Assembly: GCA_964514585.1 (NCBI GenBank)
Contig: CAZETU010000001.1
Coordinates: forward strand, 178,523 to 242,522
Direction: 5' to 3'
Source of the DNA: Candidatus Woesearchaeota archaeon
Lineage (GTDB): Archaea; Nanobdellota; Nanobdellia; Pacearchaeales; GW2011-AR1
DNA: 64,000 bases
Shown: piece after piece, positions 23,572 through 49,600 of the stretch
How positions within the stretch are numbered: position 1 is the first letter of the stretch
Layout: every line of letters starts with the position of its first letter
The notes under the pieces: model-generated
Told to the model about the DNA's origin: nothing
What the model saw: the letters and a program-made list of their open reading frames with translations, nothing else
Databases searched by the model: none
Translations under genes and position numbers: made by a program

Positions 23572-24252
23572 TTAAGGAAGGTTAGACAATTCAACCCATA
23601 AAATTACGTCTGCAAGAATTCTGGAATCTTTAATTTGTAAGCCCGAAGCCTTTGCTATCTTTTTCATATCCTCAAGGCTATATGATTTTGATTTTAATCC
23701 ACTTTCTGAATAAAATATCTCATCAACTTCATTAATTTTAAAAATTTTAATTCCTACAGTTTTATACCAATTCTTTCTGTCCTCTAGGGTTCCTTTTAGA
23801 TATACACTTATGAAAATACTTTTCTTGGTCACTTGTGAAATTTGTTTTAAAGTTTGAACTTCGTCCTTAACATTCCCTAGGGTATTCCAAACACAAAGGC
23901 TAAAATCAAAATATTTTAAAGGAAACATTTTACTTATATCTTCCAAATCTCCTTGGAGAATTTTAACATTAGAAAAATTCTTTGCAACTCTTCTTGACTC
24001 TTTTAGCATAAGATGTGCATTATCTATTCCTATGAATTCCTTTACAAATGGAGCAATTTTTGGAATTAATCTTCCGATCCCAACTCCTGCCTCAAGAATT
24101 TGAGATTTTATATTTAGCTTAGTTCTTAACAGCCTCATTTCATCATTTATATATTTTTGATATTTTTTGGGATAATATTTAGGAATCAGTGCTTTGAATT
24201 CTCCTTGTTCAAAATCTTCTCCTTCAAAAAACTTTTCTTTCATTACTCCCAC
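23572..24252 (-). CDS. Class I SAM-dependent methyltransferase
   Basis: LEAGVGIGR motif I, FDFSLCVWNTLGN; AT-rich, lacks native skew. Confidence 0.85.
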   Translation of the reverse strand: MGVMKEKFFEGEDFEQGEFKALIPKYYPKKYQKYINDEMRLLRTKLNIKSQILEAGVGIGRLIPKIAPFVKEFIGIDNAHLMLKESRRVAKNFSNVKILQGDLEDISKMFPLKYFDFSLCVWNTLGNVKDEVQTLKQISQVTKKSIFISVYLKGTLEDRKNWYKTVGIKIFKINEVDEIFYSESGLKSKSYSLEDMKKIAKASGLQIKDSRILADVILWVELSNLP

Positions 24253-24377: not shown

Positions 24378-24467
24378 ACACAAGATAACGTACGAGATTC
24401 ACTCTCGGGAGTTATCCCTAAAAATTCTGCAGAATTTTCCCAACGATTTTTTCACCAGAAAAAATGT
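24378..24467. repeat. 90-nt three-hairpin structured intergenic repeat, copy B
   Basis: Ungapped 72/90 match to 32181-32270 with six compensatory base-pair changes. Confidence 0.85.
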
Positions 24468-24473
24468 TGATGT

Positions 24474-24842
24474 TTACACCTTCGCCATCGAGAACACAGT
24501 TTTCAGCGCAACAATAATCGTAGCAGGTACAAATAACACCAATAGCGATGTCAAAACATTCCTAAGAGCAGTCACAACATAATTATTCAAAGCAACATAT
24601 TTCAAAGGCTCAACTCCAAGCGCCCCAACAATAACCAAAGAAAGACTCGCTAACAAAAAAGTTTGAGAATTTTTATCGCCAACATTCATAAAACCAACGA
24701 TAAGACCAATAAGAACCAAAGCAGAATAAAACAGCCCACCAGCCTGCTCAAGCGATTTATTGAATAATCCAAAAACAATAGCCAAAACAACACCTGTCAA
24801 GAACGCATATGCCCCCAGCAAATTCTCTCTCGATTTCACCAT
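24474..24842 (-). CDS. Hypothetical four-TM membrane protein
   Basis: 122-aa hydrophobic ORF with native codon bias. Confidence 0.75.
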   Translation of the reverse strand: MVKSRENLLGAYAFLTGVVLAIVFGLFNKSLEQAGGLFYSALVLIGLIVGFMNVGDKNSQTFLLASLSLVIVGALGVEPLKYVALNNYVVTALRNVLTSLLVLFVPATIIVALKTVFSMAKV

Positions 24843-32144: not shown

Positions 32145-32180
32145 ATATACACAAGCGCCGAAAAGCGGCGCAACAAAAAC

Positions 32181-32270
32181 ACATAAGATATCGTACAAGA
32201 TTCACTCTTGGAAGATATCCAAAGGAATTCTGCAGAATTCCCCCAAAGAATTTTGCACCAGCAAAATTTT
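32181..32270. repeat. 90-nt three-hairpin structured intergenic repeat, copy A
   Basis: Ungapped 72/90 match to 24378-24467 with six compensatory base-pair changes. Confidence 0.85.
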
Positions 32271-32276
32271 TAACGT

Positions 32277-32774
32277 CTAAAAGACCTTACAAACCTTCAT
32301 TCGAATTACTAAACTATCACTACCAGAAACAATACTTCTCTGCGAAGCCAAAACATTCCCCGTGCAATTCCCCTCATCTATCCTCAAAAGCCCCTGCGTC
32401 CCATCATCTTCCTTAACAAAAAAATCAAGCTGATAAGCATTCACACTTGCCTCACTTTCCATCAAATCCCCCAAAATATCACTCAGACTCTCATTTAGAT
32501 AATCACACGCAGAAACCCCCAAATTGCTGCACCGATCACCCTCATAACAACTCTTAAACAAATCCTCAACAGCATCATAATCCGGCTCGTAAACAATCGC
32601 ACAATCAGTCGTATATTTCATCAAAGCACTCAATATATGACTCGTCTCTAAACTATCGCTCTCATCCGGCCCATCTCTAAGCGAAATCACCAAAAAAACC
32701 ATCAACCCAACAACAACCAACACAACTATCAAAACAAACCCAACCATCTCCTGCTGCCCCTTATTGTTCCTCAT
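32277..32774 (-). CDS. Class III signal peptide (pilin-like) protein
   Basis: MRNNKG/QQEMVGFVLIVVLVVVGL. Confidence 0.7.
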   Translation of the reverse strand: MRNNKGQQEMVGFVLIVVLVVVGLMVFLVISLRDGPDESDSLETSHILSALMKYTTDCAIVYEPDYDAVEDLFKSCYEGDRCSNLGVSACDYLNESLSDILGDLMESEASVNAYQLDFFVKEDDGTQGLLRIDEGNCTGNVLASQRSIVSGSDSLVIRMKVCKVF

Positions 32775-36254: not shown

Positions 36255-38687
36255 TTACAAAAAATCCTGAGTCGGTCTCACAACAACCGAACAATCAGCG
36301 TCCTCATTTCTAAAGGCATCACGACACTTAATATAATAAGTCTCCTGATCATTCCACTCAGCAACGTGAACACTAGAATTAGAATAAGGCATCTCAACTC
36401 CCTCATCAAAACTAAAGTCACAATTATTAAACGAATAAGCACACTCACTATCCCGAACAGTCACAAGCTTCAACATCTGATCTTCCTCATAAATCCTCGC
36501 AACAACCGGCGCATTAGTATCAACATCCAAAGTAAAACTCGCAATATCTAAAGCTAAATTCCCACCCTCATCGATACACTTAACATAATAATCATGCTCA
36601 CCACCAACCAAATCTAACCTCTGCGTATGAATTCCATCATCAGTATTCGTATCATAAAACATAATGTAGTCATTCTCATTACCAGTCTCAGAATAATAAC
36701 AAACCGACCGACCATTATTACAACCATAAATCGTCTCAGCATATAACTCAACAGGCGCAGGACTAACAGCCCCAAAAATGGTCCCATTAGGCATCAATCT
36801 TCTCAACTTCAAACCAGTGCTCCCTCTGAGGCTAAACTTAAAACTCTCTTTATTCTCATTCCTATCATTCTCTTCAACTCCAGGCTGATCCTTACATCTT
36901 ACATAAAAGTCAGCTCCATCCCTAGGAATCCCACTAAGCTCACCTTGACAAGTAAACAACTGCGCCGCATTCATTTGATAAAGCTCACTCGAACAACTCA
37001 TCTCATTTTGCATATTATCATAATCCTGATCCTGAGTACTCCACCTACAAGTCGACGGCTCATTAACATAAAACTCAACCATAGCAGTATCCTGTTCCTC
37101 AGCAACACACCCACCATTAACAACCGAAGTAGCCTTAACCTGCGGAGCAGTCACGTCTGGCGACGGATCAATACAAAACCGAATAGCATACTCAGCCGAA
37201 TTCTCATTCCCATTCTTATCCTTACACCTCAAATAAAACGTCAAATCCTTCCCATTCTCCAAAACAAGACCAGTCCCCTCAATCTCAGCAGCCCCAGGCA
37301 AACTAAACTTCTCCGAATGATTATAAGAATACAAATTACTCGACCCCACATAACTAATCATCTCATCAAATGTCTCAGTATGATTAAAATCAATCTTACA
37401 CTGCGCTGGCTCATTAACAGTAATCCCAAACTCCAACGGTGTAAACGCTTTTAAGCACCCATCACTAGATTCTAAATTAACAATCTTAAATCCAGGACCA
37501 GGCGGCGAAATCTTAACATCAGTATACTTATGCCCCAAACTAAGCTCATTATAATTCGGCTTAATCACAGGCATATCAACATCCCGAGGATTAATATTCA
37601 CACACTTCTCATCCACTGTTCCCTCATTAACAATCTCACAATTCTGTCCCAAAGATTTACACCTATACTCAGAACAAGGCAAAGAGTCATCATTACAAAT
37701 CTCACAATCATTCCCTCCCGACGGAGCCTGCCACGGCATACACTCAAAAGTCACAACCTCAGTATCCATCTTCTGATACATAGCAACAAAAACAACAGCC
37801 CCAATCCCAACACCAACCAAAGGATTAGAAAGCCACTTCCAAGACTGCGACTCAAGAATTTTACTATAAGTAGAAAAAAACCTATAAGATCCAGCTCCAG
37901 CGGCCAAAGCCGTAGACAAAGCCTCAGTATTTTGTTCCTCCATCCCAAACAAACTTCCAATCATCTGACCAGCAAAATAAGCAATTCCTGCCCAAACCAA
38001 ACCAGAGACAGCTGCATCAGCAAAAGTTCCTTTAATAAGTCCAAGATGAGAAGATCCAAATTTAGTACTAGTTTGGCCAGCACTAGTAACCGGAGTCTTA
38101 GCAACAACGGAAGAAGTTCCTTCAACAGTTTTTGTAACACCATTAGAATTAGTAACGACCATATCATAAGTACCTTTTTCAGCACCAGCAGTAACAGTGG
38201 CAGTTGTTCCGTCACCTAAAGCTGCAGTTTCAATACCTTTCTCTCCCATGTATTGTAAGGTTCCACCATTATAAGTTCCAGCAGGAAGTTGGGTTGTTAA
38301 GTCAGCAGCATAAGTAGTGGTTCCAGACCAAGAGCCCGTATTGCCCGAGGCGTAATTCGTAACATCAACCTTAGGAGCATTAGAAGGAGGAGTTGGAAGT
38401 TTTGAAGTTTCCCCAGCCCCAGCGGATCCCTTAAGTCCCCCAGCACCACCAGTCTCAACAGTAGAGGTTCCTGCTTCTGCAGCATGTTGAGATGTAATAA
38501 CACTACCATCGCCAATTATACCATCACCATTAATATCATATTGAAGGTCAACTTCACTAGGAGTGCCAGCACTAACAAATTCAATATTCCCAATCATAAA
38601 TGCAAACGCAAAAACAGACAAAATAAACAAGCCTAATTCAAAACTAGCAACGGATTTTTTAACAAATAAATCAGACCCTTTTTTCAT
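36255..38687 (-). CDS. Large Cys-rich surface protein with Gly-rich hydrophobic segment and Ig-like repeats (810 aa)
   Basis: VASFEL N-terminus; FECMPWQAP...PCSEYRCKSLG motif shared with 46689-50477. Confidence 0.8.
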   Translation of the reverse strand: MKKGSDLFVKKSVASFELGLFILSVFAFAFMIGNIEFVSAGTPSEVDLQYDINGDGIIGDGSVITSQHAAEAGTSTVETGGAGGLKGSAGAGETSKLPTPPSNAPKVDVTNYASGNTGSWSGTTTYAADLTTQLPAGTYNGGTLQYMGEKGIETAALGDGTTATVTAGAEKGTYDMVVTNSNGVTKTVEGTSSVVAKTPVTSAGQTSTKFGSSHLGLIKGTFADAAVSGLVWAGIAYFAGQMIGSLFGMEEQNTEALSTALAAGAGSYRFFSTYSKILESQSWKWLSNPLVGVGIGAVVFVAMYQKMDTEVVTFECMPWQAPSGGNDCEICNDDSLPCSEYRCKSLGQNCEIVNEGTVDEKCVNINPRDVDMPVIKPNYNELSLGHKYTDVKISPPGPGFKIVNLESSDGCLKAFTPLEFGITVNEPAQCKIDFNHTETFDEMISYVGSSNLYSYNHSEKFSLPGAAEIEGTGLVLENGKDLTFYLRCKDKNGNENSAEYAIRFCIDPSPDVTAPQVKATSVVNGGCVAEEQDTAMVEFYVNEPSTCRWSTQDQDYDNMQNEMSCSSELYQMNAAQLFTCQGELSGIPRDGADFYVRCKDQPGVEENDRNENKESFKFSLRGSTGLKLRRLMPNGTIFGAVSPAPVELYAETIYGCNNGRSVCYYSETGNENDYIMFYDTNTDDGIHTQRLDLVGGEHDYYVKCIDEGGNLALDIASFTLDVDTNAPVVARIYEEDQMLKLVTVRDSECAYSFNNCDFSFDEGVEMPYSNSSVHVAEWNDQETYYIKCRDAFRNEDADCSVVVRPTQDFL

Positions 38688-38721
38688 AAATACTACAACA
38701 ATCAGTTATTTATAAATTCTA

Positions 38722-39237
38722 TTATTCGATAACCCTAAATTTTCTTACATCCGCAGCTCCACTTTCTGCTCTAGCAATTACAACATATTCTCCTGGAAGT
38801 AAGGAGTCTTTTCTAACAATACATGCTTTCCCCGGCAATGCGTTATACCGATCAAAAGACTTACCATTTTTGTCTCTAAATTCATAAGAAACACGCTCTC
38901 TTTCACTATAAGCCCCTAAATCAATATATATTCCAATGTTTCTATTGTCAATAACATTTCCAGCATCATTACCCAATTCTGAAATCTCAATATTCCCATT
39001 TTCATCCTTATCATCACATTCTCTAAAATTCATTCTGGGATCAGGACTCTTATTAGTACGAGTTGGGAAATACTGTTCTGATAAAGTTTTAGCATTGGCC
39101 TGCCTATCCCTATTCCTCTGAACATGCTTCCCTGCTTCATATGTAGCAATAGGCATACATCCATTAACAGCAACAGCAGCCAAGCCAGCAAGACCAACTC
39201 CTAAAAAACCACGTCTAGTAATATTACCTTTTCTCAT
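38722..39237 (-). CDS. Putative lipoprotein with Tat-like signal and EF-hand loop
   Basis: TRRGFLGVGLAGLAAVAVNGC; DKDENGNIEISE. Confidence 0.6.
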   Translation of the reverse strand: MRKGNITRRGFLGVGLAGLAAVAVNGCMPIATYEAGKHVQRNRDRQANAKTLSEQYFPTRTNKSPDPRMNFRECDDKDENGNIEISELGNDAGNVIDNRNIGIYIDLGAYSERERVSYEFRDKNGKSFDRYNALPGKACIVRKDSLLPGEYVVIARAESGAADVRKFRVIE

Positions 39238-45911: not shown

Positions 45912-46669
45912 GCATACCCCGGAGGCCAAGCCAAACTTCGACTAGCAAATTTAAATTTATTTCCATAAACCTTATTCTCCAACATGTAAACAGTAGTGCC
46001 ATCTCCACGCTTAATTTTATCAATCACATAATCAGGATAAAAGCCCATCATACTCGTCACATCACTATCCCCATACTTAACTTCAAATTGTAAAATCGAA
46101 GTCGCAATCATCAAAGTTTCATAAAGCGCAGAATTTATTCGAACATTAAACTTCGTAAATCTCTGACTACCAACGGTAGTAGGAGCATTAACCTCAACCC
46201 TAATCACACCAGGCTCAATCACAACATCATAATTAATTTCCCCACTCACAACATCATAACCCTGAGACTTCAGTTCATTAATCGAATTACTATAACAAGT
46301 ATCCATACTATCCCGAATAGAAATCTCCAACTGATCATCAAAAGTCTGCTTCAAAAACGGCCTCTGCACAGTACAAGTCTTATAATATTCACTAGTATAG
46401 CAAAGATAAGTCAAGTCCTCTCCCTTATACGCATAAGTAAACTCAGGATCAATCAACCCAGCCTTCGCCTCAAGATCCTCCATCACCTGCTCAACTGCAT
46501 CCTCAATACAAGATTCAAACCCAAGCTTCTTCCCTTCTTGAGAAAAATAAGTCGGCCGCGCCCACAAAAAGAAAACCAAAATAGCCGAAACAATAACAAT
46601 CGCCACTAAAATAAACATAGTCACCTGACCCTTTTTGCCACTGCCCCTTTCCATGCTCATTATAGCCAT
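45908..46669 (-). CDS. Class III signal peptide (pilin-like) protein
   Basis: KKG/QVTMFILVAIVIV; paralogue of 50477-51238. Confidence 0.75.
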   Translation of the reverse strand: MAIMSMERGSGKKGQVTMFILVAIVIVSAILVFFLWARPTYFSQEGKKLGFESCIEDAVEQVMEDLEAKAGLIDPEFTYAYKGEDLTYLCYTSEYYKTCTVQRPFLKQTFDDQLEISIRDSMDTCYSNSINELKSQGYDVVSGEINYDVVIEPGVIRVEVNAPTTVGSQRFTKFNVRINSALYETLMIATSILQFEVKYGDSDVTSMMGFYPDYVIDKIKRGDGTTVYMLENKVYGNKFKFASRSLAWPPGYA

Positions 46670-46688
46670 CCCTTATTTATAAATTCTA

Positions 46689-49600
46689 TCATAATGCACG
46701 AGCAGTAATAGAGCATTCCCTAGGAATATTTCCAAACTCGTCCTCGCACTTAATATAATAAGTATCCCCCCGAGTCGTAGAAAATGAATGCGTCTCCCCT
46801 ACACCAAGCATTTCACCACTGTCCCAATCAAACCTACAAGTGCTAGTTGAATACCGACAATCCGCATCTTCATTCGTCACAATATACATCGTCCCACCAT
46901 TCTGCCAAACCCGAGCAACCTGCGGCGTCGAAGTATCATGAATAATCCTAAACTCAGTCTCGCCCCTCACAAAATCCCCAGTCTCATCCGTACACTCAAT
47001 ATAAATATGATTAGTCACAGCCGGCCGATTCAACATCTGCTCATGACTATTACTCTCGCCAGTCTCAAACATCTGAATCATATTCTCATATCCCGAAAAC
47101 GAATAAGAACACCAATGATACTCGGCCCCACCAGAAGTATCAACTTCAACATAAATCGTCGTCACAGTCGTATTAACCTCAAAGTCTTCACTCGGTTCAA
47201 TTGAATCAATCGCAATCTTTCTCTCAGGCTTCCGAAGCTCATAAACAAAACTCTCAACATTAGCATTCCTCTCAGTCTCATCAACAACCCACGGCTGATC
47301 CATACACTTCACATAATATGTATTCGTCCCATTAGAAACCGGTAAAATATCACTACAAGTATATCCCAAAGGATTCGACGGCCGCGCCAAAGTATCATTA
47401 CAAATCATAGAGTTAGCCATGGCTCCATAATCAACATCCGTAGAACTCCACTTACAAGTCGACAACTCATTCGTCACAATACTAACATCCTGCGAAGTTT
47501 TCTCAAACCCAATAATCAAATCATTCTTTGGCTCACTCCCACGAATCATCGGCGCAGTCACATCATCACCCTCGACAACACAAAGATCAACCGTATAAAA
47601 TCCAGGACTCTCATGCCCCTTAACATCTCTACATTTCACATACAGCGTCATATCCCCATTCCAATCAGCACCCTGACTCTGCCCATGACTAGGATCAGGC
47701 AAAAGAAAACTAGTCGTATGATTCCGAATATAAGAATTCCCACCAAGGTCAAATTCCATATTCTCAAACTCATTCATAGCAATATCAAACTTACACTGCG
47801 CCGGCTCATCAGTCGTAATCCCAAAAACCAACTGAGTATAAGCATCAATGCAACCCCCTCCAGAAGTAATACTAAAACCGCTTTCACTAATACTAGTATA
47901 TTCCTCATCTTCAGAAATCATACTTATCGAAGGCCCCAAAACAGGCGGATTAACATCATCAGGACTCCCATCAACACACATCTCATCCTCAGTCCCCTTA
48001 TTGATAATCTCACACGCAGCCCCCAAGCTCGCACAACGATATTCAGAGCACGGTTTCAACGGGTCACCATTACACTTCTCACAATCATCAGCCCCACTCG
48101 GAGCCTGCCACGGCTTACACTCAAACTGAACCTCAATCGGGTCACAATCATCCCCTCCAAAAAATAAAGAAACAATAACCAAGACAACACCTATTATAAA
48201 TAAAGCAAGACCAAGCACAGGGATGCCCAAAAGAGGAGCGCTATTAGTCAAAAGAGCATACCCAGCAATTCCACCTATAAGCCCGCCACCAATAGACATA
48301 AGTAAAGATCCGCCGGGACTAAGACCCAAAGATTTCGCAATCATAGCTCCAGCAATCATTCCAATTCCAAGTCCAATAGCAAATCCAGCGAAAGGAGCCA
48401 AGCTTCCAGCCGCCCCAAGTACACTCGTGGACTGAGAAATTGTAGCAACTGCAGAAATTCCCTCGAGCGCAAGGGCTCCACTCAAAGAACCAATAGTAGA
48501 AACAAGTGAAATAAATCCTGCAGCATACCCAATACCAACAGCCCCCATTCCAATATTATTCATTAAAGTATCCTCCCCCAATTCCCCAACAGGAGTTTCC
48601 AAATCCCCAATCAATCCAGCAGCCTCCAAAAATTCTGTATAATCTTCGACTTCAGCAATTTGTCCAGGAACAGGCGCAGACATTTTAATCAAATCAGAAA
48701 TATATTTAGTGCTTAAATCTGGAGAGTTCCTAAGTTTATAATTATCATTATATTCCCCCAAAATATTTACAGAGCCCCCACAATCCCCAATACCTCTACA
48801 CATATCATTCATCTCCTCAACAAATCCCGCTCCCAAACATCCTTTATTCGCAACAATCTCGCATCCTCCCCATGTCTTAGGCTTATACACAACCGTACAC
48901 GTCTGACTCGCAATCCCACAAAGTTGTTTAGCTGTCATCTCATACCTCTCGTCCCGAAGATTAAATCCGCCAGGATATCTAGGCATACAAACATCAAAAC
49001 TAAACTTATCAGCAATTTTAACTTCCTCAACTCGACAATTCAAAGTATCCGCACATTCTTCCATCACATCTTTATCCCCATTCATATCAAGACACTTCCT
49101 CCAATTATTAGCAATACAAGCCGCATTCCTAAATTCAACTTCATTCCCCTGGACATCAAAAGTATTAGTCTGCACACAAATCTGATTTCTATAATCAGCA
49201 CAAGGCTCTATTTGGACAACACCTTGAGAACAAACATATTTCCAATGCCGACTCCCAACAACATCATCTCCATCATCAATCTTCCCATCATACTCACACC
49301 ATGATTCACCATTCCCATAAATCTCACCCTTAAACTCACAAGACGTTGACCGACAATAAAAATTTCCATTATCTACATTAAAATTATCTTCCGAGGCAGA
49401 TGCACAAATCCCCCCAATAAATCGATTACAATTCCCGCAACTTTCAGAATTAGCATTGCCAGTTTTGCTAAAATCCCCACAAACATCTTCAGGCTCAGCA
49501 ACCCTCTCCCAATAATTATAATCATTTAACTTCGACGAATCATAAATATTAGCATAATTCCCACAAGAATCCAAAAAATAAACCTCATCCTTGCCATCAA

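Follow-up and report, generated by a model that had tools for sequence, protein, structure and literature searches.

Two copies of a hairpin repeat that belongs to a dispersed family, unlisted so far, were found at gene 3' ends in the 64,000-nt stretch of archaeal DNA analysed here (the window). With somewhat less than even confidence, the element is read as a REP/BIME-like mosaic repeat that caps transcription units in Pacearchaeota (DPANN). The window corresponds to C1:178523-242522 of a genome of 1.04 Mb in 18 contigs (G000). Proteins that cluster with its S10 and TBP bear the names Candidatus Pacearchaeota or Nanoarchaeota, which places the genome among the DPANN archaea. Searches with nhmmer located 12 copies in this genome, all at E < 1e-12, and the covariance model R1 recovered the same 12 at E values up to 8e-5; the sequence-only reading of the window had spoken of a two-copy element, a count that these searches replace. 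Rfam 15 at gathering threshold returned only two tRNAs from the whole window, and E-value scans (up to 1 or 5) of six G000 loci and ten loci of the congener JAGLQO01 (G030) gave only tRNA, 5S, 23S and chance-level matches, in keeping with the earlier remark that no named family was recognised. No description of such elements in DPANN or Pacearchaeota was returned by a literature search. That the repeat family is real, and absent from Rfam and from the searched literature, is strongly supported.

Architecture of the repeat and its two window copies

The element is described in gene sense, which is the minus strand of the window. Its first hairpin, H1, consists of a 4-bp outer helix, a bulged C, an 8-bp helix and a UGGU loop, with a near-invariant run of U5-7 in the 5' arm and the general form YYRAC-AUUUUUUC-UGGU-GAAAAAAU-C-GUYRR. 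H2 is an A/U-rich hairpin ending in U4-5, typically AAAAUUC-UGCA-GAAUUUU, and together with H1 it forms the conserved core. For H3, four or more unrelated types were distinguished, and the P1 helix of the sequence-only reading is replaced by unrelated hairpins in over half of the copies. That helix corresponds to type I, in which both stems covary; in type III a covarying outer stem encloses an invariant CUUACCG...CGCAGA...GAU. A run of at least four T follows within ∼15 nt of H3 in 8 of the 12 G000 copies. Conservation of sequence was seen in the UGGU loop (with any closing pair), the bulged C, a GG linker and UAGAUUC after H2. The 5' boundary is sharp and common to the G030 copies, with RT before it and YRAC after it, and 5' of H1 only the RT is conserved; the 3' boundary varies by module.

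The trains of G030 continue with a fourth hairpin and further modules, and some H3 loops hold nested inserts. One such insert, ...GCGCACCCUCACU...GGUUGGGGCAG..., was seen in some type III H3 loops (L107, L122, L125). A recurrent extra module, roughly CUUCCAUAAnAAAUCA-(GC-rich hairpin)-GCAUUUCUCAUGGAG, trails many trains, among them those of G030 at L112, L114, L119, L120 and L126 and those of G000 behind C1:60846, C1:107917 and C1:126965.

The window copies, A (32181-32270) and B (24378-24467), align without gaps and are identical at 72 of 90 positions. Upon realignment this figure and the six compensatory swaps previously reported were reproduced exactly, 12 of the 18 differences falling into the pairs TA to AT, AT to GC, GC to AT (twice), AT to TA and GC to TA. 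The other six differences had been placed outside those helices. Two of them (positions 67 and 89, A to C and T to G) form a seventh swap in an outer helix that had been missed, closed over a bulged G and reading CAAA/TTT in copy A and CAAC/GTTG in copy B. Plus-strand folding of A and B gave z values of −6.65 and −3.77, with 0 of 200 shuffles folding as well. The minus strands fold about as well as the plus strands, and both strands of both copies yield three hairpins.

In copy A, H1 (the earlier P3 plus the outer helix) was placed at 32244..32272 on the minus strand from folds, the R1 model and pair counts. It reads UAAA-AAUUUUGC-UGGU-GCAAAAUU-C(bulge)-UUUG and contains the conserved U-run, UGGU loop and bulged C; the R1 match covers window 32218-32277. 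H2 (the earlier P2, GGAAUUC-UGCA-GAAUUCC; folds and pair counts) occupies 32224..32241 and the type I H3 (the earlier P1 plus P1b; folds) 32185..32221, both on the minus strand. This H3, a swappable module, folds as a hairpin in two steps, its internal loop being 3x3 and its hairpin loop GUGAA. Right behind it in gene sense lies a U5 run (32175..32179, minus strand), a possible second oligo-T terminator. A GC-rich hairpin, GCGCCG-AAAAG-CGGCGC (32155..32171, no strand assigned), sits between copy A and a convergent plus-strand gene, and a homologous extension trails one G030 copy (L052). The gene capped by copy A (32277..32774, minus strand) encodes a 165-aa protein with a hydrophobic stretch at its N-terminus and no match in Pfam.

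Copy B gave the top R1 match of the whole genome (83.6 bits, window 24415-24474). Its H1 lies at 24441..24469 (fold and R1) and reads CAAC-AUUUUUUC-UGGU-GAAAAAAU-C(bulge)-GUUG, its H2 (AAAAUUC-UGCA-GAAUUUU; folds and pair counts) at 24421..24438 and its type I H3 (folds) at 24382..24418, all on the minus strand. The capped gene (24474..24842, minus strand) encodes a 122-aa protein that looks hydrophobic along most of its sequence and has no match in Pfam. The next gene 3' of the element (226 aa, 23572..24252) is on the same strand, and copy B is thus placed between two tandem genes. In both copies the minus-strand stop codon is 6 nt from the aligned block, as had been noted, or 4 nt ahead of H1 when the outer helix is counted. 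Homology between the two capped genes was considered and rejected; they encode unrelated small proteins with hydrophobic stretches.

Selection on pairing, folded strand and position behind genes

Pairing is under selection. Across the 12 G000 copies the paired cells amount to 93.9%, and in 10 of 19 pairs both partners have changed; none of 500 shuffles did as well in either paired fraction or covariation score, and pairing drops to 37-62% when the registers are slid. When 62 copies from five genomes were taken together, in an alignment fitted to the covariance model and hence somewhat favouring structure, 97.3% of cells were paired and 18 of 19 pairs carried double changes (0/500 shuffles). 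That the structure is selected, as proposed from two copies, is borne out, and the substitutions in the additional copies, which might have broken the helices, largely keep the pairing. The pairs between the U-run and the A-run of H1 are near-invariant (UA in 55-62 of 62 copies), which points to a sequence constraint on the U-run itself, and the outer and apical pairs covary freely. Since the UGGU loop is also kept whatever pair closes it, pairing and some sequence are both constrained in the core hairpins.

Which strand folds is indicated less directly. G-U pairs number 26 and A-C mismatches 14 overall, or ∼13 and 12 when one terminal pair is left out, and a strand assignment from this count is biased by the genome's GC skew of 0.3-0.4, which itself predicts some excess. 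Pairing so close to strictly Watson-Crick is as compatible with DNA, or with function on both strands, as with RNA. A few conserved, putative wobbles (a U-G closing H1, two G-U at the foot of type I H3 and a U-G in type III H3) favour the gene-sense strand as the folded one. This strand is the G-rich strand of the contig in 12 of 12 G000 copies, for which the chance is ∼0.006 given that 58-67% of genes, depending on the contig, lie there. We take the G-rich strand to be the lagging-strand template; the placement fits the capping of leading-strand genes and a single-stranded-DNA mechanism equally. GC skew is one-signed and extreme (0.3-0.4) across the whole of the G000 contigs C1, C2, C5 and C6, where about two thirds of the genes are on the G-rich strand. 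Minority-strand genes of C1 keep the skew sign of the contig, at a mean of −0.11 as against −0.42 for majority-strand genes.

Every copy has the orientation of the gene whose 3' end adjoins it, in the window a minus-strand gene. In G000, 10 of the 12 copies begin 1-5 nt after the stop of a sizeable same-strand ORF or overlap that stop, one follows the 5S rRNA gene directly, and one lies ∼105 nt behind a gene and precedes a tRNA-Leu/tRNA-Arg/5S cluster. Of the 62 cores, 35 either lie 1-10 nt (mode 4) behind an ORF that is 60 codons or longer, counted from its stop, or provide that stop with their own first three bases. Others come directly after 5S rRNA in four lineages (gap 0-4 nt, ∼10 nt in G000) and after RNase P RNA in two, at 0-2 nt; tRNA-Phe and tRNA-Gly are followed at 3-4 nt, and a single core lies ∼130 nt past the 3' end of a 23S gene. 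Genes capped in G000 include those for TBP, proteasome alpha, TFS, rpS2 and rpS10. The abutment to protein, rRNA, tRNA and RNase P RNA genes alike ties the element to the ends of transcription units and not to translation. Ten of the 12 G000 copies separate tandem genes or RNA genes and precede the next gene. A role as promoter for the downstream gene was rejected, the TATA-like box of that gene being outside the element.

Two details of placement were recorded in passing. The upstream ORF takes its stop codon (UGA or UAA) from the first three bases of H1 at L058, L112, L113 and L120 of G030 and at C1:279620 of G000. At C1:126228-127084, ∼51 kb before the window, two co-oriented copies bracket the tRNA-Leu/tRNA-Arg/5S rRNA cluster, one ahead of tRNA-Leu and the other directly after 5S.

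Distribution among genomes and history of sites

The distribution is patchy. Among 49 genomes of the genus, 12 copies were counted in G000, at least 44 in G030, and 2, 2, 1 and 1 in four others, and 43 genomes had none at a cut-off of E ≤ 0.001; 24 genomes from other families of the order gave one weak match. A 25-mer from H1 was found among 185,579 species genomes only in JAGLQO01, had no exact match in viral contigs, and in a looser form was present in 13 metagenome contigs.

Individual sites differ between species. Behind TBP the element occurs in G000 only, among 30 species, and G001, G003 and G031 keep the TBP-FKBP synteny without it. Behind rpS10 it occurs only in G000 and one metagenomic lineage, and other species have different hairpin-rich trailers, a tRNA or nothing at this position. 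Such sites have therefore been gained or lost, and the comparison shows the TBP site as a gain in G000. Twenty-one contigs carry an identical S10 protein, and in all eight of those listed the spacing from S10 to the next gene is as in G000, the element being evidently present. At least two other families of long AT-rich hairpin trailers lie directly behind rpS10 in congeners (L076, L085, L088 and L094; L078, L082 and L097), so that structured gene-end trailers seem general in the genus and the repeat family would be one of several.

Nucleotide similarity identified three sites common to G000 and G030, namely 5S, a 584-aa gene and a 722-aa gene. A G030 gene with a C-terminal tail closely similar to that of the 122-aa protein also has a copy (L114:451); it is probably the ortholog of the copy B gene, which would make this site a fourth, the comparison covering the C-terminal tails only. 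Copies at shared sites differ by compensatory changes and even in H3 type, and resemble the other copies of their own genome, which points to maintenance in place combined with concerted evolution.

No pair of G030 copies exceeds ∼89% identity. The copies at L037 (G005) and L138 (a metagenome) are ∼92% identical, stand behind unrelated genes with unrelated flanks, and show three stem differences, all compensatory. The genes preceding both end in a similar tail, AVADGE-x-KK-xx-stop, and the copied unit may therefore sometimes include ∼35 nt of gene end plus stop codon. The L037 copy (L037:1460-1503) follows a gene of at least 500 aa whose C-terminus looks, by eye only, like that of a family B DNA polymerase, and the L138 copy follows a 67-aa cysteine-rich protein.

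Candidate roles and relation to known systems

We infer that transcription passes through the element, which would serve the host as the end signal of the transcription unit. Across the genome, T-runs of at least five are over-represented within 15 nt downstream of stop codons (124 of 860 gene ends), at 38-43 per 5-nt bin as compared with ∼17 further out, and the U5-7 run of H1 starts ∼5-15 nt past the stop, within this zone. Both G000 and G030 encode the termination factor aCPSF1 (TIGR03675), a U-tract-binding protein that is most effective when at least two tracts are present (PMC8716108), and oligo-T read-through rises at lower temperature (PMC2253867). On the strength of the T-run zone, the serial U-runs and the presence of aCPSF1 the train is read as a fail-safe terminator and spreading 3'-end structure. 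The embedded U-runs would act as terminators of the oligo-T/aCPSF1 type, the hairpins would add a fail-safe stop or shield the 3' end from nucleases, and the family would spread and be homogenised by copy-and-paste or gene conversion between gene ends.

Several points stand against this cap reading. Archaeal termination is not known to need hairpins, and in Pyrococcus furiosus a hairpin was without effect on termination (PMC2253867). An efficient stop at the U6 of H1 would leave the conserved H2 and H3 untranscribed. Of the 49 congeners 43 manage without the element, pairing is near-strictly Watson-Crick with few G-U, and in type I H3 it is on the opposite strand that the purine-rich GUA/GRA loop more resembles a motif. 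A more specific version is unlikely: a lineage-specific structured end signal with U-run hairpin, UGGU loop and bulge, read by a dedicated factor or by aCPSF1, ending mRNA, rRNA, tRNA and RNase P RNA genes and copying itself without a recognisable transposase.

A live rival is a mobile element that is purely selfish and non-autonomous, with hairpins that would be read as single-stranded DNA, either as in IS200/IS605 PATEs and REPINs or by another enzyme. Such an element would be tolerated only in the few bases between gene end and next promoter, and its covariation would record the evolution of active source copies with no host function. The patchy copy numbers among the 49 congeners, the gain at TBP in G000 only, the near-identity of L037 and L138 behind unrelated genes in two lineages, the sharp 5' boundary, the near-strict Watson-Crick pairing and the G-rich-strand placement of all 12 copies agree with this, as do the conserved loop and bulged base, which are features of the kind that HUH enzymes read. 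No target-site duplication or copied gene end was found when the 40 nt upstream of every G000 copy were compared with the 300 nt downstream (no direct repeat >7 nt, none better than shuffles), as in Y1 transposition; no terminal inverted repeats were evident by inspection. Of the REP/MITE-like character suggested by the sequence-only reading, the dispersed repeat thus stands, and the inverted ends and target duplications do not appear. The suggested HUH link is not supported. Y1_Tnp genes, present in 11 of 49 congeners, are unrelated to element content: G000 has two identical IS200-like copies, G030 has five, nine congeners have the gene without the element (in G067 at least six full-length matches plus fragments), and none was found in the element-bearing G003, G005 and G015. 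The IS200-like ends are unrelated GC-rich hairpins, and R1 with filters off gave nothing below E 0.6 around seven Y1 loci. The selfish reading is opposed further by the want of copies above 90% identity within G030, which indicates no recent burst, by the three or four G000/G030 shared sites with compensatory differences, by the absence of exact H1 25-mer matches in viral contigs, and by the abutment at 0-10 nt to RNA and protein genes alike, for which there is no known targeting mechanism; we regard it as rather unlikely. The G000 IS200-like pair (C5:31193-31552 and C5:59638-59997; L066 and L068) is identical over ∼665 bp with GC-rich end hairpins, and the transposase frame of both copies has one in-frame TGA.

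Binding of the element, as RNA or DNA, by a lineage-specific protein with another role (3' processing of stable RNAs or mRNAs, control of RNA decay, chromosome organisation, or management of replication-transcription clashes) would account for the conservation of sequence beyond pairing, in the UGGU loop, bulged C, GG linker, UAGAUUC and type III H3 motif, and for the abutment to the mature 3' ends of 5S rRNA, RNase P RNA and tRNAs. With no candidate protein known, most congeners lacking the element and H3 interchangeable among unrelated hairpins, it is quite unlikely. A further rival is an independent small RNA gene or antisense RNA from the plus strand of the window, the strand drawn in the sequence-only reading, with an E-loop-like motif in P1. 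The good plus-strand folds speak for it, and the E-loop-like GUA/GRA 3x3 internal loop is indeed kept in seven type I copies, on the plus strand only; it belongs to a variable, swappable module on a strand that is probably not transcribed. Read in plus orientation the copies share no conserved promoter-like block upstream, all of them point towards the 3' end of the adjoining gene on the other strand, and the conserved wobbles become A-C mismatches on the plus strand, which leaves a plus-strand RNA very improbable. Equally little, or slightly less, can be said for an attC-like folded recombination site marking mobile gene cassettes. Location 3' of genes in fixed orientation, structure more conserved than sequence and an extrahelical base are shared with such sites, and the G000 outer helix YAAC...GTTR presumably resembles attC core sites. 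The capped genes are nevertheless dispersed core genes (TBP, rpS10, 5S rRNA, RNase P RNA) and not arrays, the G030 copies read TGAC...GTCA, so that the YAAC/GTTR core is not kept, and H1 at 29 nt is far shorter than attC sites (57 nt or more). The content of the capped genes largely refutes this reading.

The element is REP/BIME-like in kind, set apart by its host, its composition, its strict placement at gene ends and the lack of a RAYT. Like the REP/BIME/REPIN elements of enterobacteria and pseudomonads (PMC2817692, PMC3337134), of which similar palindromes have been reported computationally in archaea too (PMC12306157), it is a short extragenic palindrome in many copies, mostly at gene or operon 3' ends, with module mosaics, compensatory pairing and no target-site duplication; termination and mRNA protection have been proposed for those elements, as here. 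Unlike them, it has no linked RAYT and forms no inverted or alternating doublets (all 12 G000 copies are single and co-oriented), its hairpins are AT-rich and not GC-rich, it lies 0-10 nt from the gene end, always in gene sense, in a DPANN host, and its U-run is in the 5' arm of the first hairpin. With IS200/IS605 elements and PATEs it shares hairpins with specific loops or bulges, the absence of target-site duplication and an orientation bias relative to replication; it departs from them in that the G000 IS ends are different and content is independent of Y1_Tnp, and from PATEs in having no fixed 4-5-nt target 5' of H1. Correia elements of Neisseria, pneumococcal BOX and RUP, and ERIC are non-coding folded repeats of ∼100-150 nt that are co-transcribed with their neighbours, can provide terminators or processing sites, and have a patchy distribution in related genomes. 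In contrast to these families, the element shows no evident terminal inverted repeats and duplicates no target site, a parent insertion sequence was not found, and its orientation and position to the upstream gene are strict. The U4-7 runs directly after the gene end, several in series and with aCPSF1 present, recall archaeal oligo-T/aCPSF1 (FttA) terminators (PMC8716108, PMC7515710, PMC2253867). Those terminators need no hairpin and are not homologous repeats, whereas here the U-run is paired with a downstream A-run in a covarying hairpin with conserved loop and bulge.

If the cap reading is true, the element would be the first structured, spreading end signal in archaea, found at the ends of all gene classes, where archaeal termination is, to our knowledge, thought to need only U-runs and aCPSF1. 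The host lineage has so far not been grown, and its sequence is the only evidence. For annotators the repeat also marks where genes and transcription units end in these genomes, and it shows that REP/BIME-like repeat populations persist even in streamlined genomes of 1 Mb. Were it only selfish DNA, it would still be an unlisted repeat family with an unexplained way of moving.

Elsewhere in the window, several direct repeats of 40-84 nt and 72-81% identity (families D4, D6, D14 and D20) link 36300-38730 with 46650-50470, ∼10.4 kb apart, and indicate a diverged duplicated gene block.
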